In this document: piece after piece, positions 1,951 through 14,826 of the stretch | Position numbering within the stretch: position 1 is the first letter of the stretch | Layout of the letters: every line of letters starts with the position of its first letter | Source: a virus | Virus genome (UHGV): UHGV-0107297 | Direction: 5' to 3' (one strand) | DNA length: 18,657 nt | Program-made: the position numbers and the translations under genes | The notes under the pieces: generated by a model | The model's input: the letters and a program-made list of their open reading frames with translations, nothing else | What the model was told of the DNA's origin: nothing | The model's database searches: none

Positions 1951-2373
1951 ATGAAACACGTATTACTTCCTCTGGTTGCTGCCTCCGCGTTACTTATCAC
2001 TGCATGTCAATCTCGTCCTATTCCTGTCTCTGAGGCAAAGCCAGCACCGCAGACCAGAATATTCAAATACCAATCTCCGGCGGCATCGACGCTGGTGGTT
2101 ATGAGAGATAAAAGCATGGTGGGCGCCGGTTGCGACGCATCGATCTTCATCAATGGCGAAACCGTTGCAAAACTGGAAACAGGTGAAAAAGTCACTTTTC
2201 ATCTGGATGCCGGAGAATGGATTGTTGGCGCCTCACTCGAAGACGCTGGGCTGTGCGCACTGAATCCTGCTCGTCAGGAACGCGAGACGATTACCAAAGC
2301 TGGCGAGACGAAAGTCTTCCGGGTGTTCACCAGTAATGCTGGTGACATCGATATCTTACCAACGACACTGTGA
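1951..2373 (+). CDS. putative lipoprotein, 140 aa
   Basis: N-terminus MKHVLLPLVAASALLITAC reads as signal peptide with lipobox LITA-C; in-frame alternative ATG at 1915. Confidence 0.6.
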   Translation: MKHVLLPLVAASALLITACQSRPIPVSEAKPAPQTRIFKYQSPAASTLVVMRDKSMVGAGCDASIFINGETVAKLETGEKVTFHLDAGEWIVGASLEDAGLCALNPARQERETITKAGETKVFRVFTSNAGDIDILPTTL

Positions 2374-2377
2374 CGAT

Positions 2378-2905
2378 ATGACGAATATTACTGACATCAC
2401 CTACGGGATTCCTGCAGAAGTCTGGCCGCGCGATTACACCAACGTGGAGAAAGCGCTGATGTTCTGGCGCAAGTCTCTTATTCCTGTAAGGGTCACGATG
2501 GAAGATGGTCAGGTGTTCTGCATGTATGTTCAGGGTCTCATGTCGTCACGCAACAAGGTCGACCTTTGCCCTGCCCCGTTCGACAAAGATAATCGTATAA
2601 GGCTCCCACTTGAGCGAATCAGCACGATTGAATCAGGTGTGACAGAAGGCATTGCACACGACTTCACGGGTCGGACAACGATACACCCAGACTATGTGGA
2701 CAATCGGCCATCTCGCCGTGATTTCTTCAAAATTTGTCGCCAGGCCCATGAGATGCAGAAGTCTATAAGGGTCTACATGGCGGATGGCCGTGAAATTGAG
2801 GGGGTGTCTTCAGGCGTTGACGCTTGTCAGGTCACACTCAACATGGGGGACGGTAGGAAGACAGTCGCCATGTTCGATTGGGTCGAACGGATTTTACCGT
2901 TTTAA
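2378..2905 (+). CDS. hypothetical 175-aa protein with internal duplication; weak Rof/YaeO-like (Rho-binding) resemblance
   Basis: Likely start ATG 2378 (MTNITD) 4 nt after lipoprotein stop; two repeats each with (I/V)RVxMxDG(Q/R)...ERI pattern; Rof link is from memory and unverified. Confidence 0.5.
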   Translation: MTNITDITYGIPAEVWPRDYTNVEKALMFWRKSLIPVRVTMEDGQVFCMYVQGLMSSRNKVDLCPAPFDKDNRIRLPLERISTIESGVTEGIAHDFTGRTTIHPDYVDNRPSRRDFFKICRQAHEMQKSIRVYMADGREIEGVSSGVDACQVTLNMGDGRKTVAMFDWVERILPF

Positions 2906-3227: not shown

Positions 3228-3878
3228 ATGTCTAACGTTACCATTTCTAAAAAATCCATTATCGACGCTGCTGTGGTTATCGCTAATGAGTTACAAGTTG
3301 CAGCCAACAACGCTACTCAGACTTATAACAATCATTATAAAAATGGTACACACACAAAAGCGGATAAAGCTAACATGCTTGCAGCGTCTACCAAACTAGC
3401 ATACTTCACCAACAACGTTTTAAACGCTGTTAATGATGAGAAATTAGCTGGTATCTTTTACTACGCGATTAAAGCAAGTAAACAAGCACCTGAAGCGTTT
3501 TTCCGTGAAGCTATGACCAATAGCTATTCACTCGAAAAACTGGTTTATCTGGTTAAATCTATTAAAGCTGGAAAGTGTGTTTATTCCGTCGCTGATATGT
3601 CCGGATCTCGTGTATTCGCTTTAATCGATATGATTAACGACGAGATCGACACGTTCACCAATGGCGCTGTTTTCGATTTAATGAATGAAGCGAAAAAAGC
3701 CAACGAAATAAAATTAGACGCAGGATACACTCAAGCCAACCAGCTTATCAATCTTTGCGAACGTCTGGGACTGGTCGAAAAAATCAAAGGAATGGGTGCA
3801 GCGAAAAACGGATCACAGCAATATCGCTTCGTTAAAAATGATTTTTATAACTATCTGGCTGATGCTTTCAAAGCGTAA
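3228..3878 (+). CDS. hypothetical 216-aa protein, AT-rich gene
   Basis: SD AAGGA before ATG; low-GC composition unlike flanking genes; no motif recognised. Confidence 0.7.
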   Translation: MSNVTISKKSIIDAAVVIANELQVAANNATQTYNNHYKNGTHTKADKANMLAASTKLAYFTNNVLNAVNDEKLAGIFYYAIKASKQAPEAFFREAMTNSYSLEKLVYLVKSIKAGKCVYSVADMSGSRVFALIDMINDEIDTFTNGAVFDLMNEAKKANEIKLDAGYTQANQLINLCERLGLVEKIKGMGAAKNGSQQYRFVKNDFYNYLADAFKA

Positions 3879-3890
3879 TTAGATGGATAT

Positions 3891-3915
3891 AGCGCCCACT
3901 ATGGGCGCTAGTTTT
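3891..3915 (+). terminator. rho-independent terminator, copy 1 of a 19-bp palindrome
   Basis: AGCGCCCACTATGGGCGCT at 3891-3909 followed by AGTTTT. Confidence 0.55.
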
Positions 3916-3928
3916 AAGGAGCTTAATC

Positions 3929-4159
3929 ATGTTTGTTCTTATCGCTGGCGTTAACGTCCATAATGAATATTATGTTAATCGCATCGCTGGGATCGCTGGG
4001 ATCGCTGGGCGCGCAGTCGAGTTTATAAATGAAACAACGCGCAAAATTGACTTATTGAACGACCAGGAGCGAAAAAAAGCAGACGTGAATGACGCTGATA
4101 TATTTTTAATGTTAAAAGCGTTTGTAGAAATGGGATTCAAAATTAGTTTACACAAATAA
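3929..4159 (+). CDS. hypothetical 76-aa protein containing IAG-IAG-IAG
   Basis: SD AAGGAG 7 nt before ATG; contains 3 tandem 9-bp repeats. Confidence 0.55.
   Translation: MFVLIAGVNVHNEYYVNRIAGIAGIAGRAVEFINETTRKIDLLNDQERKKADVNDADIFLMLKAFVEMGFKISLHK
3983..4009 (+). repeat. 3 x 9-bp perfect tandem repeat ATCGCTGGG
   Basis: Direct reading: atcgctggg atcgctggg atcgctggg, in-frame inside CDS 3929-4159. Confidence 0.9.
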
Positions 4160-4165
4160 AATCGA

Positions 4166-4190
4166 GCGCCCACTATGGGCGCTTTTTTCG
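4166..4190 (+). terminator. rho-independent terminator, copy 2 of the same 19-bp palindrome
   Basis: AGCGCCCACTATGGGCGCT at 4166-4184 followed by TTTTTTC. Confidence 0.7.
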
Positions 4191-4589
4191 TTTCCAATAC
4201 TCCCACCATAACGCGCCATCATTAGCGCGTTTTTTATTGTCTTTAACTCGCTCCAACAACATAAAAATAAGCACCAAAATAACGCCATAGACGCGCTTTT
4301 ATATCCTTGTTAGTACATACACATTACTTAACACATTAACGCGCTTAAAACGCGTTATATTGCGCTATAGAGTATGGTTAATCATTGGCTTTTAGTCTTG
4401 CTATGTGATCCGCGTTTATTTGTCGGCGCGGATCGGCTCTTTGTGTTGTTTTGTATCCGCTCGCATATGATTGCCACGTTGGGCAACGTGTACGCGCTTA
4501 CAGTGATTTACCCACGGATTCACATAATCACATAGCGAAAGCTATCTGGATGGCCCAGGGGCTGAAACCCCCACCAGCGCTACCCCAGC

Positions 4590-4780
4590 GCCGCTACGCA
4601 ATTTCTGGCGCGATTCCGGGTTTCTCCCGCTCAGTTTTCTACATAAAGGCGACCCCCGCCGTTTCCCGAAAAAATCTTGGCCGTTTCCCGTCGGCTCATG
4701 AATGCGTTCCTCGCCGTTTCTGAAAATTTCCCTGCGGCAGCTGGTGGCTATAGAGAAAGGGCCGTTTCTGGCCCTCTTCT
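4590..4780. repeat. structured non-coding region with GCCGTTTCCCG / GCCGTTTCTG direct repeats (region A)
   Basis: Copies at about 4659, 4680, 4713 and 4761, plus gggtttctcccg at about 4611; shares CGTTTC(CC)TGAAAA...TTTCCCTGCGGC with 8693-8731. Confidence 0.5.
4758..4775 (-). terminator. terminator of CDS 4784-5266
   Basis: Minus strand reads AGGGCC-AGAAAC-GGCCCT then TTCTCTAT immediately after the stop. Confidence 0.45.
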
Positions 4781-4783
4781 CAG

Positions 4784-5266
4784 TTACACGCCATCAAGGA
4801 TGTGGATGCGGTTGCTTGCGTATACATTCAGCATAAAGTTAGCGCAAAACAGTTTCCATGTGTCAACGCCAGCGGCATACGTAATGTTTTTGCATTTTAT
4901 TGCATTGTTGGCGATCCGCATCCCCTGCGATACTGCTTCATCGTCGGAAAATTTGAACGACGATTGAGTTTTAATCCAGACAGAAATCTGCGTAGCGAAC
5001 TCAATCAGCTTGGACTGGCAGAATCGCCCGGAGCGTACCGGGAAGACAAATGTTCCGAAGCCAGAATTTGCGACATACGCTTTCTCAATTACCCGTGAGT
5101 AACGACGTTTGCAAATGATGTCGCGTGCAATAATGCATTTTTCTTGTGCTGACAGTTCTACCGTCTCATTGTCGCGCCATGCACCAAGTACTCGTTTTTC
5201 AATATCAGAGAACGTTACAGCGATATTGCCATGTGCGGGTGCGTTTACAGTAGCGATAAAATTCAT
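4784..5266 (-). CDS. hypothetical 160-aa protein
   Basis: SD AAGGAA 8 nt before ATG at 5266; box copy upstream. Confidence 0.65.
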   Translation of the reverse strand: MNFIATVNAPAHGNIAVTFSDIEKRVLGAWRDNETVELSAQEKCIIARDIICKRRYSRVIEKAYVANSGFGTFVFPVRSGRFCQSKLIEFATQISVWIKTQSSFKFSDDEAVSQGMRIANNAIKCKNITYAAGVDTWKLFCANFMLNVYASNRIHILDGV

Positions 5267-5282
5267 GATTAATTCCTTATCG

Positions 5283-5320
5283 TAAATAACAAATTGTTTT
5301 CTTGTTGGTGTTAATTATCG
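5283..5320 (-). promoter_or_regulatory. conserved box copy 1 (AAACAAATTGTTTTCTTGTTGGTGTTAATTATCG)
   Basis: Palindromic core AACAAATTGTT; minus-strand TTGACG-17-TAATTA overlaps it; about 20 nt before the SD of CDS 4784-5266. Confidence 0.5.
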
Positions 5321-5441
5321 TTGTACGAATAAGGCGTCAAAGTGGAAAGTTGCGGTAGCCGGACGGGAACAGGTGGGTTTGTCGGTTGCCTGGAGGTAAG
5401 AGGTTGGTGTTTTTAGCCTGCGGGAAACAGGATGGTCATTT

Positions 5442-5465
5442 AAGGCCACCAGCATTGGTGGCCTT
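5442..5465. terminator. GC hairpin AAGGCCACCA-GCAT-TGGTGGCCTT 3' of CDS 5471-5758
   Basis: Perfect 10-bp stem; no clean U-tract on either strand, so terminator or stabilising stem-loop. Confidence 0.35.
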
Positions 5466-5470
5466 ACTCT

Positions 5471-5758
5471 TTAGTGGAGCAGACCGATGTCGATGGTATC
5501 CCCTGAATCATCCACACGGATCATCAGCATGGCGAAGGCGTTTAGTGGATAGCTTGCGTGCCATTCAGGGAAGCGGTCATCTCGCATGAAGTCGGCAATG
5601 TCGTAAACGCAGCCCTCAAAGTGGAAGAATCGCGTGCTTACCTGCTCGTCATATTCCACATGATCCATTTCTTGCTGTTCTGTTTCCGGCAAGTCCAGCC
5701 ATGATTCAAGGAATACATTTTGTGCTTTAGGGGTAATGGTGAAATCAGTCATGAGCAT
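5471..5758 (-). CDS. hypothetical acidic 95-aa protein
   Basis: Track ORF 5471-5884 trimmed to in-frame ATG at 5758 (GTGAGGAT-ATG); D/E-rich; box copy 2 upstream. Confidence 0.55.
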   Translation of the reverse strand: MLMTDFTITPKAQNVFLESWLDLPETEQQEMDHVEYDEQVSTRFFHFEGCVYDIADFMRDDRFPEWHASYPLNAFAMLMIRVDDSGDTIDIGLLH

Positions 5759-5770
5759 ATCCTCACTGCG

Positions 5771-5804
5771 TAAACATATTGTTTTCTTGTTGGTGTAATT
5801 ATCG
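5771..5804 (-). promoter_or_regulatory. conserved box copy 2 (TAAACATATTGTTTTCTTGTTGGTGTAATTATCG)
   Basis: Near-identical to copy 1; abuts the SD of CDS 5471-5758. Confidence 0.5.
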
Positions 5805-5912
5805 CAGTGTAGATAAGGCATAAAAGAAGTTAATACAGGCTGAATACACAAGAAAGGTTCTGGAAGTTGATAGCCAGGTTTCAAACTAACCTTCGGTTAT
5901 TAAAAGTCATTT

Positions 5913-5936
5913 AAGACCACCAATGCTGGTGGCCTT
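5913..5936 (-). terminator. hairpin AAGACCACCA-ATGC-TGGTGGCCTT, relative of the 5442 hairpin
   Basis: 3' of the small ORF 5942-6085; minus strand continues AAATGACTTTTAAT. Confidence 0.4.
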
Positions 5937-5941
5937 AATAA

Positions 5942-6085
5942 TTATCGCCCGATTACGCTAAGGATCTTTTCCTCAACTGATTTGTTGTTGCGACTAAACT
6001 GCCTTGCGTATCTTATGACAGAAGAGGCGTTTCGCTTTCTGACCATCTCGGCTCTCTCCTTCAGGCGTTTCTTGAAATCGCCCAT
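5942..6085 (-). CDS. unannotated small basic ORF, 47 aa (MGDFKKRLKERAEMVRKRNASSVIRYARQFSRNNKSVEEKILSVIGR)
   Basis: ATG 2 nt after stop of CDS 6088-6462 (TAA-AT-ATG), GGTGG SD-like upstream, hairpin directly downstream; below the track length cutoff. Confidence 0.3.
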   Translation of the reverse strand: MGDFKKRLKERAEMVRKRNASSVIRYARQFSRNNKSVEEKILSVIGR

Positions 6086-6087
6086 AT

Positions 6088-6462
6088 TTACCACCAGGCA
6101 CGGAACGTCAGTCTGTTATTGTGAAAGTCGTGGTTCCTGATCAGGTCTTCCACAAGTTTTTTCAGCTTATCCACGTCATGCCAGTAACCTTCATCGTACT
6201 CCTGACTGCCGAAGAAAAAACCTTCCCGGGTAGGTAAGTACACTTCGCAATTACTTTCGTTTATGTGCATCAAATGAGCCTTCAGAAAACAAATGTCATT
6301 CATCGTTAATTCTAAAAGCTCACAATTTTCGACTTCACCTACGTTGCGCTCCATCCACCCAACGAGCGCATTGAACTTACGGAAGTAAGCAACCTGCTTT
6401 CTGGATGCCTCGTTATTCAGATCGTTTTTAGGCTGCGTCTCGATATAGATATCAAGTCCCAT
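6088..6462 (-). CDS. hypothetical acidic 124-aa protein
   Basis: Track ORF begins with GTG at 6504 inside the box; in-frame ATG at 6462 has SD TAAGGATA. Confidence 0.6.
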   Translation of the reverse strand: MGLDIYIETQPKNDLNNEASRKQVAYFRKFNALVGWMERNVGEVENCELLELTMNDICFLKAHLMHINESNCEVYLPTREGFFFGSQEYDEGYWHDVDKLKKLVEDLIRNHDFHNNRLTFRAWW

Positions 6463-6513
6463 GATGGTATCCTTATTAAGTTGCTTCAGTGAAATCATTT
6501 TCACAAATCAGAT

Positions 6514-6540
6514 AAGGCAGAAAACAAATTGTTATCGGGA
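6514..6540. promoter_or_regulatory. conserved box copy 3, inverted orientation (AAGGCAGAAAACAAATTGTTATCGGG)
   Basis: Same palindromic core, flank on the other side; lies between the 6541-6570 terminator and CDS 6088-6462. Confidence 0.45.
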
Positions 6541-6570
6541 ATAAGAAAATGGCGCGGTTTACGCGCCATT
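6541..6570 (-). terminator. rho-independent terminator of CDS 6580-6975
   Basis: Minus strand: AATGGCGCG-TAAAC-CGCGCCATT then TTCTTATT. Confidence 0.6.
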
Positions 6571-6579
6571 CAAAGAGGA

Positions 6580-6975
6580 TTAAGCGAATACGCTTTCAGG
6601 GACAATGGTGTCGATCTTTTCGCCGGAGATTATTCGCAGACCGTGTTGTCCCATCCAGGTACTATTGGTATTTAAACTCGATGTATAAACCGCATCGACC
6701 TTTTTCATCAAATTTTCAAACAACGTCTGATCCGCGCCACGGAAATGAGTTTCCAGTTTTATCAGTAAAGGGTCAGAAGCATTACTGATGCTTTGGTAAC
6801 GCACCGAATATTTTCCCTTTGTGGCCTCGCCGGTGCGAGTTAAGGTACTGGTGTGAACTTCTTCGCCGGAGGCATTATCGCGTAGCACAATTGTAATTTT
6901 TGCAACTTTGTCTCCATTTTCCGTCTCTGATGCATAATACATATCCAGGGTCAGATTTTCGCGTTTAACGGTCAT
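6580..6975 (-). CDS. hypothetical 131-aa protein
   Basis: Strong SD ACTAAGGAGAGTGAA before ATG at 6975. Confidence 0.7.
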   Translation of the reverse strand: MTVKRENLTLDMYYASETENGDKVAKITIVLRDNASGEEVHTSTLTRTGEATKGKYSVRYQSISNASDPLLIKLETHFRGADQTLFENLMKKVDAVYTSSLNTNSTWMGQHGLRIISGEKIDTIVPESVFA

Positions 6976-7030
6976 TTCACTCTCCTTAGTGTTTAATTTT
7001 TAATTTTATTATCATAAGTAAGTACTTACA

Positions 7031-7062
7031 ATACAAAAAAGCCCCGAAGGATTGGCGGGGCT
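7031..7062 (-). terminator. rho-independent terminator of CDS 7097-7408
   Basis: Minus strand: AGCCCCGCC-AATCC-TTCGGGGCT then TTTTTTGTATTG. Confidence 0.7.
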
Positions 7063-7096
7063 GTCGTACATTCGACTAACTACTGCTTGCACATGT

Positions 7097-7408
7097 TTAA
7101 GCTACCGCCTGAACAGACGCTCGTTGGATCTCTTGTTGGGCGACACGGTTGGCTTCCATCAGCGCCAGTTCAAGCTGGTCCTCTGGCCACATTTTCTGGA
7201 CCGACATCCACCCTCTTCCACGCTGGCGACGAACTACCATCACATAGCGCGTAAAATTGCCCGCGTCGAAGGTAATGGCTTTTTCACGAAACAGACGGAT
7301 AGAAGTCCCATTCGCTACGATATCCAGCAATGTGAGATGCCCCATTAAGGTTGGTTTTTCTTTTCTCTCCTGACCTTCAGCAAGACCCAGCACCAATGAA
7401 GTATTCAT
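7097..7408 (-). CDS. hypothetical 103-aa protein
   Basis: Track ORF trimmed to in-frame ATG at 7408 (MNTSLVLG) with SD GGAG; box copy 4 upstream. Confidence 0.55.
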   Translation of the reverse strand: MNTSLVLGLAEGQERKEKPTLMGHLTLLDIVANGTSIRLFREKAITFDAGNFTRYVMVVRRQRGRGWMSVQKMWPEDQLELALMEANRVAQQEIQRASVQAVA

Positions 7409-7418
7409 CACCACTCCG

Positions 7419-7455
7419 TAAACAAATTGTTTTCTCAATGGCGTAAATAATACCA
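7419..7455 (-). promoter_or_regulatory. conserved box copy 4, subfamily b (AAACAAATTGTTTTCTCAATGGCGTAAATAATACC)
   Basis: Same core with a different distal flank, shared with copy 5. Confidence 0.5.
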
Positions 7456-7536
7456 GTGTAAAAACGGCTACAAAGCATATTGCTCAGGCACATGAATTAT
7501 CTAAAGGTGGTTCTTCCCTGCGGCTACAGAGAAGTT

Positions 7537-7559
7537 AAGCCAGCAGGCGGTGCTGGCTT
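7537..7559 (-). terminator. hairpin AAGCCAGCA-GGCGG-TGCTGGCTT 3' of CDS 7569-7898
   Basis: 9-bp stem; weak U-tract. Confidence 0.3.
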
Positions 7560-7568
7560 TGGTTGGGT

Positions 7569-7898
7569 TTACGCGAATACATCAAGGAACTCCTGAACGT
7601 CCCAATGCTGGACAAGGTGAAGATAGAGCTTAGAAATCACGTCATTCTCGCTATCGCATGTGAAGTAGTACTTCTGGCTGCGGTTGTATGTATCCACACA
7701 AAATTCGCTCATATCCATAAAGTCAGCATCATCACCCAGGTCGCAAATAATCAAAGCAGGAGCATCATCACGAGTCATCAGCTCAAGCACCCAGCGCGAA
7801 TTGATCAGCGTGGAAGACCAACCTTCTAACTCATAAAACTGGTCAAACTCTTTTTGAGTCATTTTCTTGATTTGGTTGATGTCGATATTTGCAAACAT
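7569..7898 (-). CDS. hypothetical acidic 109-aa protein
   Basis: Track ORF trimmed to in-frame ATG at 7898 (MFANIDIN) with SD AAGGA; D-rich. Confidence 0.55.
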   Translation of the reverse strand: MFANIDINQIKKMTQKEFDQFYELEGWSSTLINSRWVLELMTRDDAPALIICDLGDDADFMDMSEFCVDTYNRSQKYYFTCDSENDVISKLYLHLVQHWDVQEFLDVFA

Positions 7899-7909
7899 AA
7901 CGCAATCCT

Positions 7910-7945
7910 TAAACATGTTGTTTTCTGAATTGCGTAAACAATACC
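7910..7945 (-). promoter_or_regulatory. conserved box copy 5, subfamily b (AAACATGTTGTTTTCTGAATTGCGTAAACAATACC)
   Basis: Aligns with copy 4 over about 35 bp. Confidence 0.5.
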
Positions 7946-8009
7946 AGTAAGAAAACGGCCACAAAGTATATCGTTACGGTGCTGCGCTGCCCCGGAGGTT
8001 AATAGCGAC

Positions 8010-8030
8010 AAAAGCCACCGTGCTGGTGGC
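8010..8030 (-). terminator. rho-independent terminator of CDS 8038-8256
   Basis: Minus strand: GCCACCAGCACGGTGGC then TTTTGTCGC. Confidence 0.5.
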
Positions 8031-8037
8031 CTCACTC

Positions 8038-8256
8038 TTAATCTTCGTCGCCCGGGAACTCGCTGTGTACCGCGTCCACCAGCTCCCGCTTTTCATCTTC
8101 ACTCAGCAGGTGCCAGATATCCTTCCCTTTGGGCGATTCCCCTTCTGCCGGGACGAACGACCACAACTTGCGGTACAACTCCGGCCCCACTGCATCCAGA
8201 CACTCAGCCAGGGAATCCACGCCCCACACCTCAACCGTCACAGGCATCTTAATCAT
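8038..8256 (-). CDS. hypothetical acidic 72-aa protein
   Basis: ATG at 8256 preceded by GTGAGGATGAAGAG; D/E-rich. Confidence 0.55.
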   Translation of the reverse strand: MIKMPVTVEVWGVDSLAECLDAVGPELYRKLWSFVPAEGESPKGKDIWHLLSEDEKRELVDAVHSEFPGDED

Positions 8257-8286
8257 CTCTTCATCCTCACTTCGTTTATATAACGT

Positions 8287-8322
8287 CTAAACATGTTGTT
8301 TACTTGTTGGTGTTATTATCGC
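8287..8322 (-). promoter_or_regulatory. conserved box copy 6 (AAACATGTTGTTTACTTGTTGGTGTTATTATCG)
   Basis: Subfamily a; upstream of CDS 8038-8256. Confidence 0.5.
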
Positions 8323-8589
8323 AATAAGACAAAGGCGGAAAAGGATTTTATGTCGTGAAAGCCAGGCTGGGCAGTGAATATCCGGGAACGACACGGGAGC
8401 CAGTATTTACGATATTCTGCTCTACGCGCGCCACGGGGCTGGTGGGCAGAATATCCTTCTCCCCGAAAACCTACTGAAATAGCTTGAGACCCAATGATGG
8501 TCTGGCAGAATGGAGTCCAGTAGCTGCACGAGAGGGAATGACACTCCCCCGCGATTTTCAGGCGAGTGAAGAGTAAGGCGCACTCCCGA

Positions 8590-8770
8590 AGATTTCCCGC
8601 ACCGCTCCCGCAGTCGTCCCTCACTCTGTACCGGGATGTACCCGTTTCCCGACCGGCAGCCAGCCTTTCCCCGGTTCGTATAGCGGGATTCCCACCGTTT
8701 CCCTGAAAACCTCAAGCCTTTTCCCTGCGGCGACGCTCCCGTTCCTGAAAAGGGACATAGCTTTCCCGGA
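8590..8770. repeat. cluster of about 7 YTTTCCC(G) repeats (region B)
   Basis: gatttcccgc 8591, cccgtttcccgacc 8641, cctttccccgg 8665, ccgtttccctg 8695, ccttttccctgcgg 8718, cccgttcctg 8738, gctttcccgg 8760; related to region A. Confidence 0.5.
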
Positions 8771-8954
8771 TGGCCCGAAGGCTGACCGAAGGGGTGGAAA
8801 GGGACGTTACGGGGGATGAAAACTATGGCTTGAATTTATGCGGAAAAAGTGGCGATACCCCTCCTTCCCTTCCCACTTATACCTCCCACGAATTTTCTCT
8901 CTTATGTGGGCATAAACCTTCCCTCTGATAACGCTCTATACGGCGAGTATTCCT

Positions 8955-9480
8955 TTGGGTGAAATGGGTGGTTTGTTCTTTCTACCGGCATATGTGGTTT
9001 CGTTCTTCTTGAGGTGGTTCTTCTCTGTGTTTTCGTCTGGGTTGTTCTCGTCGTTTTGGTGAGTGTTCTTCTCCGTGTATGGAGTAATGGCAGGTGCGCT
9101 TTTCTCTTCGTTTACGTGAAATGATGAAAGTGTGGGTAATGGCAGTAGGGCGCTTTAGTTGTTCTCCGCATATGAAGTAATGGCGTTCCCTGCTATTCAG
9201 GAATTTGCGCTCTCTTTCGGGGTAATGGTGGGTAAACGAGATTGTGACGGCTCCTGTTCTTGTCTGGGTTTGTCCGGGGTTTCGTTCTGGCTGTTCTTCT
9301 CCGTGTATTGGGTAATGACGTATCGGGGTTTGCGCGTGCGAACCGCGTTCTCGGTTGCCTGGGAATATTAGGTGGGTGGTCTGTAGCCTGGGGCAATGAG
9401 GTGGGTCTTTTCGGTAGTCTGACAGGAAGAGGTGGGTGTTTCCGGGATTGTGGGTAATGGCGTCTCTGGGTTTCCTGTGG
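8955..9480. repeat. degenerate G/T-rich repeat array, no convincing ORF
   Basis: About 22-bp GKTKKTTCTTCTC units at 8960-9080; GTAATGG at 9084, 9136, 9177, 9222, 9312 (GTAATGA) and 9455; a 26-bp block GTTCTTCTCCGTGTATNGRGTAATGRC at 9065 and 9293; strong G+T strand bias. Confidence 0.6.
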
Positions 9481-9546
9481 GGGTTGTTAACTTGTTTTCT
9501 TATGCCTGAAAACAACTTGTTTAGATGCCCAATATAACGCAACGGG

Positions 9547-9571
9547 AGCGCTTCTGAGCGCTTCTGTTTTT
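9547..9571 (+). terminator. plus-strand rho-independent terminator at the right end of the repeat array
   Basis: AGCGC-TTCTGA-GCGCT hairpin followed by TCTGTTTTTGAG. Confidence 0.45.
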
Positions 9572-9714
9572 GAGTGATATCACGAGTCGTTTTTGACGTT
9601 TTGGTCGCAGGGAGATGGATTCTGGTGCGCAGGATTTTGGGTATAAGAGATGGCTTGCGAAAACGTCAACTTTTTAGACCAAATCAGAGGAAAGCGTTGA
9701 CTTTTCGTTGACGT

Positions 9715-9748
9715 GTTATTTATTTGTTTTCTTATGGGTGTAATTGGC
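9715..9748 (-). promoter_or_regulatory. degenerate conserved-box copy (TTATTTATTTGTTTTCTTATGGGTGTAATTGG), no gene downstream
   Basis: Matches the subfamily-a flank with only half of the palindrome; adjacent GTTGAC/GTCAAC repeats at 9664-9712. Confidence 0.3.
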
Positions 9749-9865
9749 TTAAATGCCTTGTCACCCCTGGGCTGGGGTAGGTTGGAGAGGTGGGGGAAGT
9801 GGCGATCAACGGACTCTTATAGAAATCCTCAATTTGTGACCGCCAATGTCAACGAGTTGCAGCCG

Positions 9866-10492
9866 TTAGTCGTTTAGGTAGTAATTAGGCACGCGAACGT
9901 AGAAATTCTCGTCACCGATCATTTCGATAGTGATGTTAATGTCATTACCGTTATCCAGTGTAGCCGTGGCTTTGTAGAACTTGTCCGTCACTTTGTCCTG
10001 AATTGTTACCTTCATGCATTTAGATGCTTCTGAACCGTTATTTTCTTTCAGAATAGTGGTAACTATAGGGCAAGCAGCTTCTTCAAGCGCTGAATCTGCG
10101 TTGAAGCTATACACGAAAAATGATGCAGCAAAGGCAACAATCCATACGATAAACAGCAGTCGGTTACTTCCAAGAACCGTCGCTCGTTTCCAGAGATACA
10201 CAGGGGGGATAAAGAACCCACATAAGAATGATGGTGGCTCATAGCCTGCCTCAGTCAAATTCATGCGATCGGCGACCAGCAGTCCAAGCCCAATGACGAA
10301 CGAAATCACCATAACGTAATTGTCGTACTCAGCAGGGGGGACGCTGACAACAAACGGCAGTATTGCTATAAGCCACGCGTAGAGGTTTTTAACTGATTTT
10401 TTTTCTAAAGTATCGATTTCCATTACATCCATTCCATTTTGAAATACAAGCGGGTATATGATATCAACTTTCCAGGTAATTATTCCCGCCAT
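9866..10492 (-). CDS. predicted integral membrane protein, 208 aa, with about 80-aa soluble C-terminal domain
   Basis: ATG at 10492 is 15 nt after the upstream stop; hydrophobic segments LYAWLIAILPFVVSV, YVMVISFVIGLGLLV, LLFIVWIVAFAASFFVY. Confidence 0.65.
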   Translation of the reverse strand: MAGIITWKVDIIYPLVFQNGMDVMEIDTLEKKSVKNLYAWLIAILPFVVSVPPAEYDNYVMVISFVIGLGLLVADRMNLTEAGYEPPSFLCGFFIPPVYLWKRATVLGSNRLLFIVWIVAFAASFFVYSFNADSALEEAACPIVTTILKENNGSEASKCMKVTIQDKVTDKFYKATATLDNGNDINITIEMIGDENFYVRVPNYYLND

Positions 10493-10507
10493 TGCTAGTA
10501 GTTATAT

Positions 10508-10828
10508 CTACCAATCCCATGCTGGCATTCCATCCACCAGCTCCGCATCACAGTCAAATTGTACCGAATCATACCCGGCATCCCGTATGGCCTGTATGTT
10601 AGAGATCGCCTCTTGGGAAATGCCGTAATCACGCAATTCTTCCTTCCAGTCATTCCCTCGCATTCCAGCACGAACAATCCATCCATACTGTGTACCGTGT
10701 ACCCAATTCAACCCGCGATCAGTAAGTGGGTCGAAGCAGGCAATGGGTAGCCGTTCTGAATCCGCTGCCGTGACGTGGGCGGTGCTGATCACCGCCGTCT
10801 TATACGATTCGGTGATTTTCAGCATCAT
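10508..10828 (-). CDS. hypothetical 106-aa protein
   Basis: Strong SD CCAAAGGAGAAGGC before ATG at 10828; start overlaps upstream stop (ATGA). Confidence 0.7.
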   Translation of the reverse strand: MMLKITESYKTAVISTAHVTAADSERLPIACFDPLTDRGLNWVHGTQYGWIVRAGMRGNDWKEELRDYGISQEAISNIQAIRDAGYDSVQFDCDAELVDGMPAWDW

Positions 10829-11061
10829 GCCTTCTCCTTTGGAAACAGAATGTTGGCCGTGTCAGAAATGACATCCCAATTCACGCCGACGCTGGCATCA
10901 TGGCACTCTTTGATTTTTCGCAAAACCTGAACGCACTGTTCGTCAGTCAGGTCTGGTCGCCCTTCACCTACATCTTCCTTGTGCCACATCACCATCAGCA
11001 GCGGCTCGTCTTCTGGGTAGTTCTCCAGCTTTTCGATAATTTCTTTCGCGGTTCCGAACAT
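10825..11061 (-). CDS. hypothetical acidic 78-aa protein
   Basis: Track start at 11079 is a TTG inside the box; in-frame ATG at 11061 has SD AAGGAG. Confidence 0.6.
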   Translation of the reverse strand: MFGTAKEIIEKLENYPEDEPLLMVMWHKEDVGEGRPDLTDEQCVQVLRKIKECHDASVGVNWDVISDTANILFPKEKA

Positions 11062-11072
11062 GATTAACTCCT

Positions 11073-11106
11073 TAAACAATTTGTTTTCTTATTGGTATTA
11101 TTATCT
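11073..11106 (-). promoter_or_regulatory. conserved box copy 7 (AAACAATTTGTTTTCTTATTGGTATTATTATCTC)
   Basis: Palindrome abuts the SD of CDS 10825-11061. Confidence 0.5.
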
Positions 11107-11117
11107 CAAATAACGAA

Positions 11118-11140
11118 AGGCAGAAAACAAGATGTTTAAG
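11118..11140. promoter_or_regulatory. conserved box copy 8, inverted (GGCAGAAAACAAGATGTTTAAGGG)
   Basis: Back-to-back with copy 7; same GGCAGAAAACAA flank as copy 3. Confidence 0.4.
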
Positions 11141-11146
11141 GGATGA

Positions 11147-11413
11147 CTAGGTGAGTTTGAAGTCGTCTATGTCATCAACAAACTCCATATACCTGGCTTC
11201 GACACTCGACAATCTGATCAGATACGCAAGCCCGTAACTTAGTGAAGTGGGTTGCTCCAGCACAAATTCGAACCCATCCTCATGCGTTTTACCAAGCCAG
11301 AACCCCCCACCGTATTCTTTTTCACGTTGGAAGAAAACGAACTGTCCGGGTATTAGGTGCTTGAGTGCTTCGCCCCTATAGACGATCACATATTTAGAAT
11401 TCTTGCTGCCCAT
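11147..11413 (-). CDS. hypothetical 88-aa protein
   Basis: Track ORF begins with TTG at 11470; in-frame ATG at 11413 has SD GCGAGGCGAGCA; start uncertain. Confidence 0.5.
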   Translation of the reverse strand: MGSKNSKYVIVYRGEALKHLIPGQFVFFQREKEYGGGFWLGKTHEDGFEFVLEQPTSLSYGLAYLIRLSSVEARYMEFVDDIDDFKLT

Positions 11414-11486
11414 TGCTCGCCTCGCAATACTGCACATATAAACAGTGGTATTTATTACGGTACTGGTCAACTTTACGGGTTAATTG

Positions 11487-11518
11487 AATAACAAGATGGT
11501 GAAAACAATTTGTTTTGG
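11487..11518 (+). promoter_or_regulatory. conserved box copy 9 (AACAAGATGGTGAAAACAATTTGTTTTGGCG)
   Basis: Core GAAAACAATTTGTTTT; about 85 nt upstream of plus-strand CDS 11601. Confidence 0.45.
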
Positions 11519-11600
11519 CGCTTGAGATTTTGCAAATCGCACCTACATGGAAAACGGCAATTTTTGAAACCTGATTTGACCCATGTGAAAGGAGGAAACG

Positions 11601-11804
11601 ATGAAGACCTATGATCGCAACCGTAACACTATCACTACCGGCAGCCGAGTGATGGTGGCAACGAATGGTGCAACGGGAGTCATCAAGGAAATCTGCGGAG
11701 AAGGCAAATCAGAAGAACAATTACGCCGCTCTGACTGCGTGTCTATCGAAGGTGTGGAAGATCTGTTCTGCCCAATGGATTTAGTTCGCCTGGGATTCCA
11801 ATAA
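11601..11804 (+). CDS. hypothetical 67-aa protein
   Basis: Strong SD GAAAGGAGGAAACG before ATG; no motif recognised. Confidence 0.65.
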   Translation: MKTYDRNRNTITTGSRVMVATNGATGVIKEICGEGKSEEQLRRSDCVSIEGVEDLFCPMDLVRLGFQ

Positions 11805-11805
11805 T

Positions 11806-11852
11806 TACACCACTAATTAAACAAATTGTTTAAGGCCACAAATAATGGCCTT
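11806..11852. promoter_or_regulatory. conserved box copy 10 fused to a GC hairpin
   Basis: ATAATTACACCACTAATTAAACAAATTGTTT followed directly by AAGGCCA-CAAATAA-TGGCCTT (11832-11852), between convergent genes. Confidence 0.4.
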
Positions 11853-12858: not shown

Positions 12859-13167
12859 TTATGATTTCGGATTTGACGAAAAGCAGGTTTGCGTCGTTGT
12901 CATCGTCGACCGTACTGAAGTGGCACACTGAATTTGGCCGTCTGTAATGGGCAGATCCGGCAACTGTTTAAAAACTTCCATCTGCTCATGGATACGCAGA
13001 AACCACCTTGCCAGCTCCATCTGCTCACCGCGGGTGAGGGGATTATTCAGCGGGGACTTAACAAAAGCGGAGACTCGCTCGACAATAGGCGGCGATCTTC
13101 GCCAGACGGTCACACATTTCGTTCTCGCGATGACCTGCATGGCCTTTAACCCACTTCCAGCGGACAT
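12859..13167 (-). CDS. hypothetical 102-aa ORF overlapping the 3' end of the rnhA homolog (weak)
   Basis: ATG at 13167 lies inside the RNase H frame (13058-13513) in another frame; may be spurious. Confidence 0.25.
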
Positions 13168-13513
13168 TATGACGACTGGCGGCCGCGTCGAGACGTTTCC
13201 AGAGATCCACGTTTTTGACTGGCTTCTTCTCAGACGTGATCCATCCGTTACGCTTCCAGCCTTTCATCCAGAGCGTCATGCCGTTTTTAAGATACTGGCT
13301 GTCGGAATGCAGGATCACGTTGCAGGGGTACTTCAGACGCTCCAGCGCAATCAGGGCGCCCATCATCTCCATCCGATTGTTGGTCGTGCTGTGGAAGCCC
13401 TCAGAAAGCTCGCGCTCTTCGCCTCGATACTGGAGAACGATGCCGTAACCGCCCGGCCCGCCCGGATTTTTGAGGCAGGAGCCATCACTGAATACTTTTA
13501 CGGTTTTGAGCTG
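13058..13513 (-). pseudogene. rnhA: RNase HI homolog with start codon replaced by CAG
   Basis: Translation [24 protein letters not shown]...[16 protein letters not shown]...HSDSQYL...[14 protein letters not shown]...[14 protein letters not shown] matches RNase HI along its length; codon at 13511-13513 is CAG where ATG is expected; no ATG/GTG/TTG in frame between the upstream TAA and internal Met at 13372. Confidence 0.6.
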
Positions 13514-13683
13514 GGGATTGAACTCGACTACGGGGGTTTTGAAGTTGGTACGGGATTGCTGGTGGGTTTGGTATTCGAACTGGCTCGGGCCAGTGCAATC
13601 GACAGCGAACTTTGTCAGCGCTTCATGCAGCTGGCAGCGGCTCGGTGGGCGTTACGTTTTACGATGCTTATTATGTGTAGCCC

Positions 13684-13712
13684 AATTAAAAAGACCACTA
13701 TATATAGTGGTC
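13684..13712 (-). terminator. rho-independent terminator of CDS 13752-14153
   Basis: Perfect 22-bp palindrome AGACCACTATATATAGTGGTCT followed on the minus strand by TTTTTAATTGG. Confidence 0.65.
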
Positions 13713-13751
13713 TCATGGTAATAGATAAGCACTTACCTATCAATTATCAAC

Positions 13752-14153
13752 TTATAAAATTCCAGCAAGAACATCGCGAACCTGACGGAATTGATCAGTT
13801 TGCATACCGGTGTAAATCGATGCGACAGCGTCCGCAAGGTGCTCGTTTTTATTCACCAGCACTTCCTTGCCCGATTGCTTCCGGCGCAACCACGGGGCGT
13901 TTGGCTGCTTCTGCGTAGCCCACTGAATGATCTCTTCTTTCGACGTAGTCAGCTTATTCCCGACATAGTACTTAATCTCGTTTGGCGTGACCTGTATCAG
14001 TGGCTTATCCACACACGCCAGTACGCCAAGACAACCACCATAAGAAACCATCGCTCTAGCAGATTGACTGCCTACTGGCAGTTCACAGAACACTAAATGA
14101 ACTTGGTCAATCAGTGGCTTAATACCACGCCAAATCTCGTTCAACCGCCGCAT
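13752..14153 (-). CDS. hypothetical 133-aa protein
   Basis: ATG ORF with terminator downstream; no motif assigned confidently. Confidence 0.5.
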   Translation of the reverse strand: MRRLNEIWRGIKPLIDQVHLVFCELPVGSQSARAMVSYGGCLGVLACVDKPLIQVTPNEIKYYVGNKLTTSKEEIIQWATQKQPNAPWLRRKQSGKEVLVNKNEHLADAVASIYTGMQTDQFRQVRDVLAGIL

Positions 14154-14187
14154 ATCGTCACTGTTAACGCGAACTTGCTTTTTCGTA

Positions 14188-14466
14188 TCACCAGCTTACC
14201 ACCTTGAGACCCAACTCTTTGATGATCCACTCGTAAGTTTCGGTCACGAAATGCAGAACGGAAGGTGATATAGCACCGCGAACATGGAAGGTATCACCAG
14301 CTACCAGCATGTGCTTACAGCCAGCAGCTTTCATCGCTTTGGCCGCCTCCTTCGTAGCGTCCAGTTGGATCTCCAGCCGAGAGTTAAGCCCGTCAGCGTT
14401 TGTTGTCGCAAAAGCATCCCAACGATGATAATGGGGATCTGATATTACCCCGTATGGCAATGTCAT
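14188..14466 (-). CDS. 92-aa ORF with N-terminal metallophosphoesterase (SbcD/Mre11-like) motifs; probably truncated
   Basis: ISDPHYH (DxH motif I) and LVAGDTFH (GD motif II) at SbcD-like spacing, but ORF stops after 92 aa before the expected GNH(D/E) motif. Confidence 0.4.
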   Translation of the reverse strand: MTLPYGVISDPHYHRWDAFATTNADGLNSRLEIQLDATKEAAKAMKAAGCKHMLVAGDTFHVRGAISPSVLHFVTETYEWIIKELGLKVVSW

Positions 14467-14809: not shown

Positions 14810-14826
14810 GTGTCTTTCTAAGACAC
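14810..14826. terminator. hairpin GTGTCTT-TCT-AAGACAC 3' of CDS 14863-15507
   Basis: 7-bp stem; followed on the plus strand by CATATTTTATG. Confidence 0.3.

Follow-up and report, generated by a model that had tools for sequence, protein, structure and literature searches.

The region at positions 4784–11831 of the window (the whole 18,657-nt stretch of virus genome UHGV-0107297 that was analysed) probably consists of small-gene cassettes that share a promoter–palindrome switch under the control of a putative repressor, are exchanged via their repeated modules and serve early or establishment functions, a reading to which we give a probability of roughly 0.6.

The host element is an SSU5/pHCM2-type phage-plasmid of E. 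coli, in which 4784–11831 forms a hyperplastic, variable accessory region. The whole window represents the backbone of this type; it shows 98.8% identity to 52-kb IncFIB non-mobilizable plasmids and partial matches at 88–91% identity to phages SSU5, Cyrano and PhiR41_1. The UHGV-0107297 copy is a virion-less, deleted derivative of the phage-plasmid, and the island is kept in such derivatives. An integrase gene is present on the element, and in intact relatives a DUF4942 methylase-like gene adjoins the region. The phage context claimed in the preliminary description is thus borne out, whereas its "plasmid leading region" label and the proposed search for oriT do not apply, because the replicon is typed as non-mobilizable and the element is non-conjugative.

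Cassette architecture of the island

All eleven minus-strand ORFs listed previously are present, with ATG starts and unchanged coordinates, and every one is conserved in relatives (SSU5, Cyrano, PhiR41_1 or pJN2-26). A twelfth island gene, ORF P (9866–10492; pI 4.62, computed on 9866–10426), was absent from that list and looks like a membrane protein, as judged by eye. Also passed over was a 1.55-kb conserved non-coding stretch (8300–9860), which carries a palindrome at 9510–9522 behind TATATT, a −10-like hexamer, and at ~9090–9461 a GCCATTAC(C/T)C repeat array that is A/C-rich on the minus strand.

The cassettes share a module of ~70 nt, with a conserved T-rich/GCC stretch at its front, for which a consensus was built from 26 unique instances. 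It contains, in order, an extended −10 (TGnGATAAT), a gap of 13–14 nt, the 13-bp palindrome AAACAAnTTGTTT, ~12 nt and the start codon; in a typical cassette the Shine–Dalgarno (SD) sequence lies ~12 nt past the palindrome. The window contains nine exact copies of AAACAnnnTGTTT (0.04 expected), or 12 when one mismatch is allowed (1.3 expected), all between 5287 and 11831 and all intergenic except a one-mismatch match at 10843, inside an ORF. Palindrome-bearing promoter modules precede seven ORFs (starts 5266, 5758, 6462, 7408, 7898, 8256 and 11061). The palindrome is downstream of the −10 in six of them, 11–35 nt ahead of the start codon and adjoining the SD on its upstream side, whereas the module of 6462 has only an upstream, −35-proximal copy, followed 19 nt downstream by the −10 GAAAAT. 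In some modules a further palindrome is found 51 bp upstream, covering the −35 region, as in the pair 11074–11086 and 11125–11137, whose centres are 51 bp apart. The upstream box ascribed earlier to most of these ORFs is therefore real and has a module at seven of them, but ORF C (start 6975) uses its own sigma-70 promoter without a palindrome (7003–7031, TTGTAA-17-TAAAAT); a palindrome lies 89 nt ahead of ORF G (start 11413). A generic sigma-70 scan found no enrichment (6 promoters versus 11.5 expected), since the promoters depend on the extended −10 and have poor −35 hexamers.

Terminator-like sites number 16 against 7.9 expected. Strong hairpins, which rank no higher than the 3.4th percentile of equal-size background windows, follow seven of the 12 ORFs (those ending at 4784, 5471, 5942, 6580, 7097, 7569 and 8038), the ones at 5441–5466 and 5911–5938 being almost identical. 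By the same folding comparison none follows 6088, 10508 or 11147. The promoter–gene–hairpin architecture is real, but not every gene forms an independent cassette: 6462-6088-5942 and 11061-10825-10508-9866 look like operons, with ORF P as the final gene of the latter.

Table 1. Coordinates, strand and main properties of the island features in the window.
Feature	Position	Strand	Details
ORF D	4784..5266	-	160 aa, pI 9.2; PHROG 1641, E = 4e-96
ORF F	5471..5758	-	93-95 aa, pI 4.13, net charge -15, most acidic; PHROG family
ORF J	5942..6085	-	47 aa, pI 11.3, very basic; Cyrano homolog CYRAN_109
ORF I	6088..6462	-	124 aa, pI 5.17; PHROG family
ORF C	6580..6975	-	131 aa; PHROG family
ORF B	7097..7408	-	103 aa, pI 9.8; PHROG family; kept in 5/5 relatives
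ORF H	7569..7898	-	109 aa, pI 4.15; PHROG family
ORF E	8038..8256	-	72 aa, pI 4.40; PHROG family
ORF P	9866..10492	-	186-208 aa; PHROG 12486
ORF A	10508..10828	-	106 aa, DUF5983 C-terminal domain, pI 4.47
ORF L	10825..11061	-	78 aa, DUF1380-like (annotation in relatives), pI 4.56
ORF G	11147..11413	-	88 aa; ORF list, five-genome cassette map
ORF D module	5287..5319	-	palindrome 5287-5299 (one mismatch); -10 GATAAT 14 nt upstream
ORF F module	5772..5806	-	palindrome 5772-5784; extended -10 TGCGATAAT 13 nt upstream
I-J cassette promoter	6497..6534	-	upstream-type palindrome 6522-6534 (one mismatch), over -35
ORF B module	7420..7452	-	palindrome 7420-7432; extended -10 TGGTATTAT 14 nt upstream
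ORF H module	7911..7943	-	palindrome 7911-7923; TGGTATTGT upstream
ORF E module	8289..8322	-	palindrome 8289-8301; extended -10 TGCGATAAT upstream
Two-operator module, full	11074..11137	-	palindromes 11074-11086 (downstream) and 11125-11137 (upstream); -10 TGAGATAAT
Palindrome	11503..11515	.	between divergent ORF G and ydfZ
Palindrome	11819..11831	.	adjoining hairpin after LprI/DUF1311 gene, 15 nt beyond ydfZ stop codon
Hairpin directly after ORF D		-	GAGGGCC...GGCCCUUUCUC; dG -19.6
Terminator-type hairpin after ORF F	5441..5466	-	TAAGGCCACCAnnnnTGGTGGCCTTA
Hairpin after two-gene I-J cassette	5911..5938	-
Hairpin and U-run after ORF C	6547..6571	-
Canonical intrinsic terminator hairpin and T-run after ORF B	7035..7062	-
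Hairpin after ORF H	7539..7557	-
Hairpin and T-run after ORF E	8010..8030	-
Conserved non-coding stretch	8323..9860	.

Early-type expression and candidate functions

Published RNA-seq data of the Cyrano lysogen (S1 Table of PMC9928086), which represent bulk lysogens of a relative rather than infection time courses, were re-analysed here. In LB the island genes are at background (median log2 3.34 versus a genome median of 3.25), and CYRAN_109, the homolog of ORF J, is the only shared island gene above it. One hour inside macrophages raises them by +2.1, more than the virion genes (+0.88, p = 0.0005) and the replication genes (+1.27, p = 0.003); under this stress they come up earlier than the virion genes. 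This is the expected behaviour of repressed, early-type genes and supports the earlier proposal of early expression. Co-expression of the box-preceded genes did not differ significantly from that of random low-expressed genes (r 0.67 versus 0.55, p = 0.13).

The PHROG scan, which took in the eight ORFs at 4784–8256, the DUF5983-like ORF and 9866–10492, gave end-to-end family matches (E 1e-44 to 1e-105), every one of "unknown function". Searches of the island proteins against Pfam, PDB and PADLOC yielded no assignment. The ORF I family is large (2,318 clusters at E <= 1e-3) and has no Pfam model; ORF L, searched alone against Pfam, had no match, and it shares 32% identity (E = 8e-5) with the DUF1380 protein of pOXA-48. 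The DUF5983-like protein gave a confident structure model that matched no known fold. Both of the most acidic proteins belong to families restricted to this phage-plasmid group, that of ORF F being found on ~105-kb contigs only; its annotation as "ABC transporter" is a database mislabel. A pI below 4.7 is found in six of the 12 island genes and one of the remaining 14 genes of the window (Fisher p = 0.026). Four of the five ORFs described as strongly acidic are so (5471–5758, 7569–7898, 8038–8256 and 10825–11061; pI 4.13–4.56), whereas 6088–6462 is mildly acidic only (pI 5.17), and three others are basic (4784–5266, 7097–7408 and 5942–6085).

Conjugative plasmids also carry two or three of the island families (DUF1380-like, DUF5983-like and the 72-aa acidic family); on those of the pOXA-48 type these lie next to oriT, with ssb and an antirestriction gene as neighbours, and a homolog of ORF E (51% identity) lies on a Klebsiella conjugative megaplasmid. 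In conjugative-plasmid leading regions the neighbours of DUF1380 and DUF5983 include ssb and klcA, and both were listed by Samuel et al. (2024) among the uncharacterised families enriched there. Because of this leading-region association, counter-defence is our best guess for what the DUF1380-like, DUF5983-like and 72-aa acidic proteins may do. The island as a whole could, on the same grounds, be mainly an arsenal of proteins that inhibit restriction, CRISPR and the like, as DNA mimics or otherwise, and are expressed immediately on entry; the acidic enrichment, the silence in the lysogen with an early response and the DUF4942 methylase-like neighbour in intact relatives also point this way. 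We consider this possible but clearly less probable than the reading above, given that no island protein resembles a known anti-defence protein or family, that the AF2 model of the most acidic protein is poor (pLDDT 57), that three basic proteins and one membrane protein are included, and that small acidic proteins are frequent in phages for many causes. Taken together, the cassette architecture, phage context and early-type expression of the preliminary description have stood, and the leading region and an island-specific box have not.

A putative genome-wide operator and cassette exchange

The box is not an island-specific early signal. The complete Cyrano genome contains 11 exact palindromes (0.16 expected) and, by a PWM scan, ~17 gene-oriented sites (~1 expected); about 14–17 promoters around the genome carry the module. 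These sites precede terS, parA, helicase, cobT, nrdB, tciA, CYRAN_58/87/101 and island genes, and since operons across the genome are preceded by it, we read the palindrome as the putative operator of a genome-wide regulon. Variant palindromes are changed in one arm only and never compensated, and palindromes of one type are located outside the predicted transcript, ahead of the −10, both of which favour protein–DNA recognition over an RNA hairpin. Since the parA operon of Cyrano is expressed in the lysogen despite its box, the site does not act as a simple off-switch. Among the candidate regulators, CYRAN_45 (a putative master repressor) has a different palindrome and no box in its own control region, the ParB_N proteins are at floor in the Cyrano lysogen, and CYRAN_29 and CYRAN_117 gave no DNA-binding match.

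A specific version of our reading is that the palindrome is the site of a partition-linked global regulator, the candidates being a ParB_N protein and the 119-aa partner of the small ParA of type Ib. Such a regulator would couple plasmid segregation to the silencing of phage and accessory promoters, in the way of KorB in RK2, omega in pSM19035 and SopB at its dispersed sites in N15. The KorB operators of RK2 are 13-bp palindromes dispersed at promoters, much as seen here, and the Cyrano parA box lies between a −10-like element and the SD. As in the type-Ib layout, the Cyrano gene for ParA, a small Walker ATPase, overlaps a 119-aa ORF downstream of it, and this ORF is expressed in the lysogen. 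However, parA has a single site whereas typical type-Ib centromeres are repeat arrays, no DNA-binding domain was detected in the 119-aa protein, and the ParB_N genes are at floor, which leaves this version doubtful.

It is unlikely that the box acts instead as a translational operator in the mRNA leader, for an FljA-family protein or a T4 RegA-like system. FljA represses fliC via the fliC 5′ leader, a full-length FljA-family gene that is core to the group flanks the island (window 2336–2905, Pfam E = 2e-95), and the downstream palindrome is just ahead of the SD inside a predicted ~35-nt leader. Against this, the stem would have only five A-U-rich pairs and a 3-nt loop, the sequence conservation of both arms is what a dimeric DNA-binding protein would call for, expression of the FljA-like gene in the LB lysogen is low (log2 4.2), and the uncompensated variants and the palindromes outside the transcript are as described above.

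Slightly less probable still is that the cassettes are "morons" or genes for lysogenic conversion and defence that the resident plasmid expresses to the benefit of the host. A promoter and terminator per unit are classical moron anatomy, virion-less derivatives keep the island, and an SSU5-like plasmid is reported to reduce foreign DNA uptake in Klebsiella (PMC8969562). Nevertheless, the Cyrano lysogen has all shared island genes but the 47-aa ORF at background, PADLOC gave no match, and lytic operons are preceded by the same operator.

Mapped across five genomes, the region consists of a conserved skeleton and variable cassettes with palindromes at the joints. Window positions 5826–6510 and 7480–7895 are absent from SSU5, SSU5 and pJN2-26 lack the ORF H cassette, and ORF D, the island's final cassette, is kept in 5/5 relatives. 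Presence/absence junctions between relatives fall within module copies, a pattern reminiscent of the PeSL cassettes in T4-type phages: the SSU5 module ahead of SSU5_115 is chimeric, joining two window modules, and the one ahead of SSU5_113 aligns with both flanking window modules. In a base-level breakpoint comparison of two indels, one junction maps to the upstream palindrome and the other could lie anywhere in ~75 bp of shared module. That the palindromes are sites of a site-specific recombinase in an integron-like array, instead of homologous exchange, is very improbable despite their presence at nearly all joints, the coincidence with one junction and the integrase gene, because non-mobile core operons are preceded by them too, the second junction can be placed only within the shared module, and a position fixed relative to the −10 and SD is a regulatory signature.

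Most of the small genes sit in a unit comprising the ~70-nt regulatory module, an SD, a small ORF and a terminator-type hairpin. Under the preferred reading of a shared promoter–palindrome switch, the palindrome, centred near +14, is the probable operator for a dimeric repressor encoded by the element. This repressor would hold the module promoters off in the plasmid-prophage state, and the cassettes would fire together when it is absent, on entry into a naive cell, or inactivated, on induction. The repeated modules may provide portable homology for the gain, loss and exchange of cassettes. The island proteins would then supply accessory early or establishment functions, among which a putative anti-defence role for some is a reasonable guess.

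A phage-plasmid backbone with a small-gene island

The region 4700-11500 of the window is 98.8% identical to 52-kb E. coli IncFIB plasmids typed as non-mobilizable and 96-97% identical to plasmids of 70-230 kb, and parts of it match the phages SSU5, Cyrano and PhiR41_1 at 88-91%. The annotated relatives have one gene order in common, namely UvsW-like helicase, small ORF, lipoprotein, FljA-family regulator, leftward small-gene island, ydfZ and LprI/DUF1311. Taken together, the common gene order and the plasmid and phage matches show that the window is the backbone of an SSU5/pHCM2-type phage-plasmid and not of a conjugative plasmid. The comparison with plasmid leading regions in the preliminary description does not apply to such an element: 745 of the 774 plasmid records matching the island, the best matches included, are typed non-mobilizable, and the island is not located next to an oriT. 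Right of 12.9 kb, the window turns into a patchwork of pieces separated by tens of kilobases in Cyrano. The element is therefore a deleted derivative without virion genes, as are its best matches, and tens of kilobases of its lytic genes have been lost. Upstream of repA, repeats of 21 bp (CCACTATAGAGAG...) form two arrays of 3.4-3.6 copies, the nearer of which overlaps the repA promoter region; they look like the iterons of an IncFIB-type replicon. The nearest relatives carry differing IS insertions within or near the island (IS100, IS3, IS1, ISL3), and the translation of a minus-strand ORF near the right end of the window is, by eye, what we take to be similar to an IS3-family transposase fragment.

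All eleven minus-strand ORFs listed in the preliminary description are present and start with ATG, which bears out its overall observation, and an unlisted membrane ORF (P) brings the island to twelve. The eight leftmost ORFs, the DUF5983-like ORF and ORF P all have full-length PHROG matches, every one of 'unknown function'; L and G (the PHROG scan covered the other ten) are annotated and conserved in relatives. The description of the proteins as mostly acidic holds for half of them, with a pI below 4.7 in 6 of the 12 island proteins versus 1 of the 14 other window genes (Fisher p = 0.026), but three are basic. Similarly, a strong hairpin (no higher than the 3.4th percentile of background) follows seven of the twelve ORFs, two of these hairpins being almost identical; the promoter-gene-hairpin architecture is real, but two gene groups without internal hairpins look like operons rather than independent cassettes. 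The sole plus-strand gene at the right end of the island, ydfZ, is flanked by two perfect palindromes.

Coordinates of the features in the window and, where given, in Cyrano
Feature	Window (strand)	Cyrano	Content or setting
Basic ORF, 92 aa	1613-1891 (+)		
FljA-family gene	2336-2905 (+)		
ORF D	4784-5266 (-)		
Hairpin	5441-5466		
ORF F	5471-5758 (-)		
Cassette additional to SSU5	5826-6510		ORFs I, J
Hairpin	5911-5938		almost identical to 5441-5466
ORF J	5942-6085 (-)		
ORF I	6088-6462 (-)		124-aa protein
ORF C	6580-6975 (-)		
ORF B	7097-7408 (-)		
Cassette additional to SSU5	7480-7895		ORF H
ORF H	7569-7898 (-)		
ORF E	8038-8256 (-)		
Non-coding stretch	8300-9860		
Box	9510-9522		behind TATATT hexamer, upstream end of non-coding stretch
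ORF P	9866-10492 (-)		membrane ORF
ORF A	10508-10828 (-)		
ORF L	10825-11061 (-)		
Second, upstream palindrome	11125-11137	93114	
ORF G	11147-11413 (-)		
Perfect palindrome	11503-11515		divergent promoter region
ydfZ	11601-11804 (+)		
Perfect palindrome	11819-11831		abuts bidirectional hairpin
Mosaic fragment	12900-15510	79.1-79.6 kb	RNase H
Mosaic fragment	12900-15510	67.4-68.0 kb	RuvC
Mosaic fragment	12900-15510	63.3-63.6 kb	5' end of sbcD
Mosaic fragment	12900-15510	60.2-63.1 kb	ASCH, RepA
21-bp repeat array	15708-15783		
21-bp repeat array	16091-16162		
RepA	16250-17305		
ORF resembling IS3-family fragment (presumed)	18215-18607 (-)		
CYRAN_45/CYRAN_46 intergenic		42600-42800	putative master-repressor control region

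Promoter-palindrome module and cassette exchange

The palindrome core AAACAnnnTGTTT has 9 exact copies in the window, where 0.04 would be expected; allowing one mismatch gives 12, where 1.3 would be expected. All matches lie within 5287-11831 and are intergenic, except for one one-mismatch match inside an ORF (10843). The box was recognised by reading the minus strand, and anchoring on the palindrome gave the layout of the module, which runs 5' to 3' from a conserved CTTTTnnGCCtTTT stretch through the extended -10 element TGnGATAAT (or TGGTATTAT), 13-14 nt (aCACCAAcAAGA), the palindrome AAACAAnTTGTTT and about 12 nt with a Shine-Dalgarno sequence to the ATG. This module of about 70 nt is common to seven island promoters, and its consensus was built on 26 unique instances from five genomes. 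The palindrome centre lies near +14, assuming a start about 7 nt past the -10 element. In some modules there is another palindrome, 51 bp upstream and with its centre near -38, as in the window, in Cyrano and upstream of SSU5_115; the I-J cassette has the upstream-type palindrome only, and ORF C has a separate TTGTAA-17-TAAAAT promoter without a palindrome. A generic sigma-70 scan of the window showed no enrichment (6 promoters found versus 11.5 expected), which is explained by poor -35 hexamers and by -10 elements of the extended type; since such a scan misses extended -10 promoters, it is not evidence against promoters in the island. Rfam at E <= 1 returned three weak chance matches over the whole window, none in the modules or the non-coding stretch, and searches of the literature for the palindrome strings gave only irrelevant matches and no description.

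Within the island, a stretch of 1.55 kb contains no credible ORF yet is conserved: its identity is 93.6% with SSU5 and 67% with Cyrano, and the indels measure 1, 8 and 10 nt. The stretch has a strong strand skew, the minus strand being A/C-rich, and carries an array of GCCATTAC(C/T)C repeats, of which Cyrano has four in 340 bp and one elsewhere in its 108 kb. A box lies at its upstream end. The stretch may encode a non-coding RNA driven by the box, or may function as an origin or as an array of protein-binding sites, and the ORFs annotated in it in Cyrano and PhiR41_1 are probably spurious.

A five-genome map shows a conserved skeleton of the cassettes A..E..B-C..F..D. The presence of cassettes H, I-J, F, M, E, L and G varies between the genomes, and there is a palindrome at nearly every cassette joint. 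Compared with SSU5, the window has two additional cassettes. The SSU5 module upstream of SSU5_115 starts like the window module before 6462 and ends like that before 5758, and the module upstream of SSU5_113 aligns to both window modules flanking ORF H. The indel endpoints thus fall within repeated motifs, as judged from two indels resolved at base level, a small sample, together with the five-genome map. We explain this architecture as a hyperplastic region like those of T4-type phages, built of promoter-early stem-loop (PeSL) cassettes (Arbiol et al. 2010, PMC2839356; Comeau et al. 2014, PMC4122927), but using the element's own promoter-operator module. As in PeSLs, each small ORFan has a conserved sigma-70-type promoter and a stem-loop at its borders, the ORFans cluster in variable regions, and the indels between close relatives end in the repeated regulatory motif. 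On the other hand, PeSLs belong to lytic T4-like phages, whereas this is a temperate siphovirus-type phage-plasmid; the hairpin here sits at the 3' end of the cassette, whereas the PeSL promoter and hairpin are fused in one composite motif; and the module here contains a 13-bp palindromic operator. In addition to the PeSL pattern, the repeated motif here contains an operator that also serves core operons genome-wide.

A proposed element-wide operator, its candidate binders and expression

The complete 108-kb Cyrano genome contains 11 exact palindromes against 0.16 expected, and a PWM scan detected about 17 gene-oriented sites versus about 1 expected, each 10-35 nt before a start codon. These precede terS (two copies), parA, the replicative helicase, cobT, nrdB, tciA, CYRAN_58, CYRAN_87 and CYRAN_101 as well as island genes. 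Since the palindrome precedes core operons throughout Cyrano, the box is not an island-specific early signal; the island cassettes are wired into an element-spanning regulon. The operator sites, 11 in the window and about 17 in Cyrano, are repeated across several promoters and overlap the RNA polymerase footprint. In viral contigs, a scan with the extended box gave many single chance matches and, among the matches listed, clusters in contigs of about 57-108 kb. One short operator at many plasmid-prophage promoters, overlapping the -35 region or just downstream of the -10 element, recalls the P1 C1 operators, the RK2 KorB O_B sites and the dispersed SopB sites of N15. The sequence here is unrelated to the P1 Op, which is an asymmetric 17-mer, and to O_B, which reads TTTAGCSGCTAAA; no C1 homolog was seen in this element.

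On sequence grounds we take the palindrome to be read more probably by a dimeric repressor that binds DNA than as an RNA element, because sequence conservation extends to both arms, variants with a change in a single arm never have a compensating one, and some sites lie upstream of the -10 element, outside the predicted transcript. The last two points also count against a minor rival, in which the FljA-family protein encoded in the window would act as an RNA-level regulator at the box, as FljA itself acts on the fliC leader. This full-length protein (Pfam Flag1_repress, E = 2e-95) is conserved in SSU5, Cyrano and pJN2-26, and its gene is up about 8-16-fold outside LB in the LF82 data from the Cyrano lysogen. 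If it represses the host phase-1 flagellin, this would by itself amount to lysogenic conversion.

A dimeric repressor could be sought among several proteins. CYRAN_45, an HTH_19 protein and putative master repressor, was rejected as the box binder: its own control region, between CYRAN_45 and CYRAN_46, has GGTAAGnnCTTACC-type inverted repeats instead of the AAACAAnTTGTTT box. This control region suggests two or more tiers of regulation in these phage-plasmids. Both ParB_N proteins were at the detection floor in the Cyrano lysogen, which makes them unlikely lysogenic repressors. Candidates expressed in the lysogen include the 119-aa partner of a small type-Ib ParA, which has a box in its promoter, CYRAN_117, CYRAN_43 and a UmuD/LexA-like S24 protein; no DNA-binding match was found for these four. 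The window homolog of CYRAN_117, which is among the best-expressed lysogen genes (log2 6.3-7.2 in LB), is the 92-aa basic ORF on the plus strand (1613-1891) after the helicase gene, and its product is a candidate regulator. A ribbon-helix-helix likeness of this product and CYRAN_29, seen by eye, found no Pfam or PDB support and was set aside.

Expression was taken from log2 values per Cyrano gene under five conditions in bulk lysogens of this relative (PMC9928086, S1 Table). The seven real island genes had a median of 3.34 in LB, compared with 3.19 for virion and lysis genes, 3.30 for replication genes and 3.25 for all genes (assay floor 2.32). After 1 h in macrophages the island genes rose by 2.1, versus 0.88 for virion and lysis genes (p = 0.0005) and 1.27 for replication genes (p = 0.003), and by 6 h the virion genes were level with them. 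Mutual correlation of box genes in the same data was not significant (p = 0.13). These data from a relative indirectly support the view that the island genes are of a repressed, early-responding type. Only the 47-aa basic ORF (CYRAN_109 in Cyrano) and a Cyrano-specific coiled-coil gene exceeded the 'moron' cutoff used by the authors of the data set. The cassettes resemble morons of lambdoid prophages in having one gene with its own promoter and terminator, inserted between other genes. Morons are defined by transcription from the repressed prophage, however, whereas the Cyrano homologs of the cassettes, CYRAN_109 excepted, are at background in LB and under the element's own operator; the cassettes are therefore not morons, as far as this relative tells.

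Protein families, leading regions and wider meaning

The island proteins had no match in PADLOC, NCBIfam or PDB sequences, and Pfam recognised DUF5983 only (E = 4e-22). As the preliminary description had stated, none of the twelve is recognisably ArdA, KlcA, PsiB or Ssb, there being no Pfam or NCBIfam match to ardA, klcA/ardB, psiB or ssb. The two most acidic protein families occur only in contigs of around 105 kb that belong to this phage-plasmid group. The most acidic protein has a net charge of -15 over 95 aa, and the per-residue charge of ArdA is comparable; the likeness to Ocr and ArdA is one of small size and net negative charge, with no homology by Pfam or PDB sequence search. Its AF2 model (5471-5752; pLDDT 56.6, shallow 16-sequence alignment) was unusable. 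A multicystatin PDB match to ORF H (E = 1.7e-5) was spurious and disappeared once a family profile was used. The 124-aa protein is a member of a very large, uncharacterised family (2,318 clusters at 50% identity, E <= 1e-3) with the near-invariant motifs MGLD (N-terminal), YxRKxN, PxxxGFFFG and a C-terminal W, for which there is no Pfam model, PDB relative or informative name.

Homologs of the DUF5983-like protein occur in 1,680 conjugative plasmids, and in pOXA-48-type IncL plasmids one lies in a gene run of DUF4942, Hha, DUF1380, an antirestriction gene, ssb, the DUF5983-like homolog and oriT/relaxase. A Klebsiella megaplasmid encodes a homolog with 51% identity to the 72-aa acidic protein. 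Samuel et al. 2024 (PMC11541004, supplementary file 3) list DUF1380, DUF5983 and DUF4942 as uncharacterised families of leading regions, but leading-region-enriched families, DUF5983 and a DUF1380-like one among them, account for only two or three of the twelve island genes, and for these an anti-defence role is our guess by association. The 52-kb relative CP057419.1, which shares the island at 98.8%, encodes a type I restriction-modification system (3546-9076) and could be a convenient natural background for assaying island-gene effects on restriction.

The island resembles conjugative leading regions (PMC11541004) in having small genes strung together, each expressed individually and most of them uncharacterised, in sharing DUF1380 and DUF5983 (and DUF4942 in intact relatives), and in being silent at rest and presumably expressed on entry. 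In our case, however, there is no oriT or relaxase; double-stranded sigma-70 promoters with a repressor-type operator take the place of single-stranded (Frpo-type) promoters; the classical genes ardA, klcA, psiB and ssb are missing; and the palindrome is absent from the examined conjugative-plasmid regions bearing homologous genes. A bolder model, which we consider improbable, is that SSU5/pHCM2-type elements are under an undescribed global switch: a small repressor, possibly the type-Ib ParA partner, would bind AAACAAnTTGTTT at about 15-20 promoters and couple maintenance to lytic and accessory silencing, and the island would be a 'leading region' counterpart, an exchangeable establishment and anti-defence arsenal fired on entry, with the families DUF1380 and DUF5983 shared with conjugative plasmids.

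E. coli, Salmonella, Klebsiella and Yersinia commonly harbour SSU5-type phage-plasmids, which are widespread in clinical Enterobacteriaceae and carry resistance genes, and whose regulation is essentially uncharted. Even without a functional pay-off, the region is a clear case of PeSL-like modular shuffling outside the T4 group. The defined operator/promoter module provides a handle for a regulator hunt (DAP-seq, EMSA), for regulon prediction in relatives and for reporters, and the cassette map indicates which small genes are exchangeable, leaving about 12 families as a shortlist for counter-defence or host-takeover screens. Two of them are uncharacterised families enriched in conjugative-plasmid leading regions, and any function found for these would therefore extend to thousands of plasmids.
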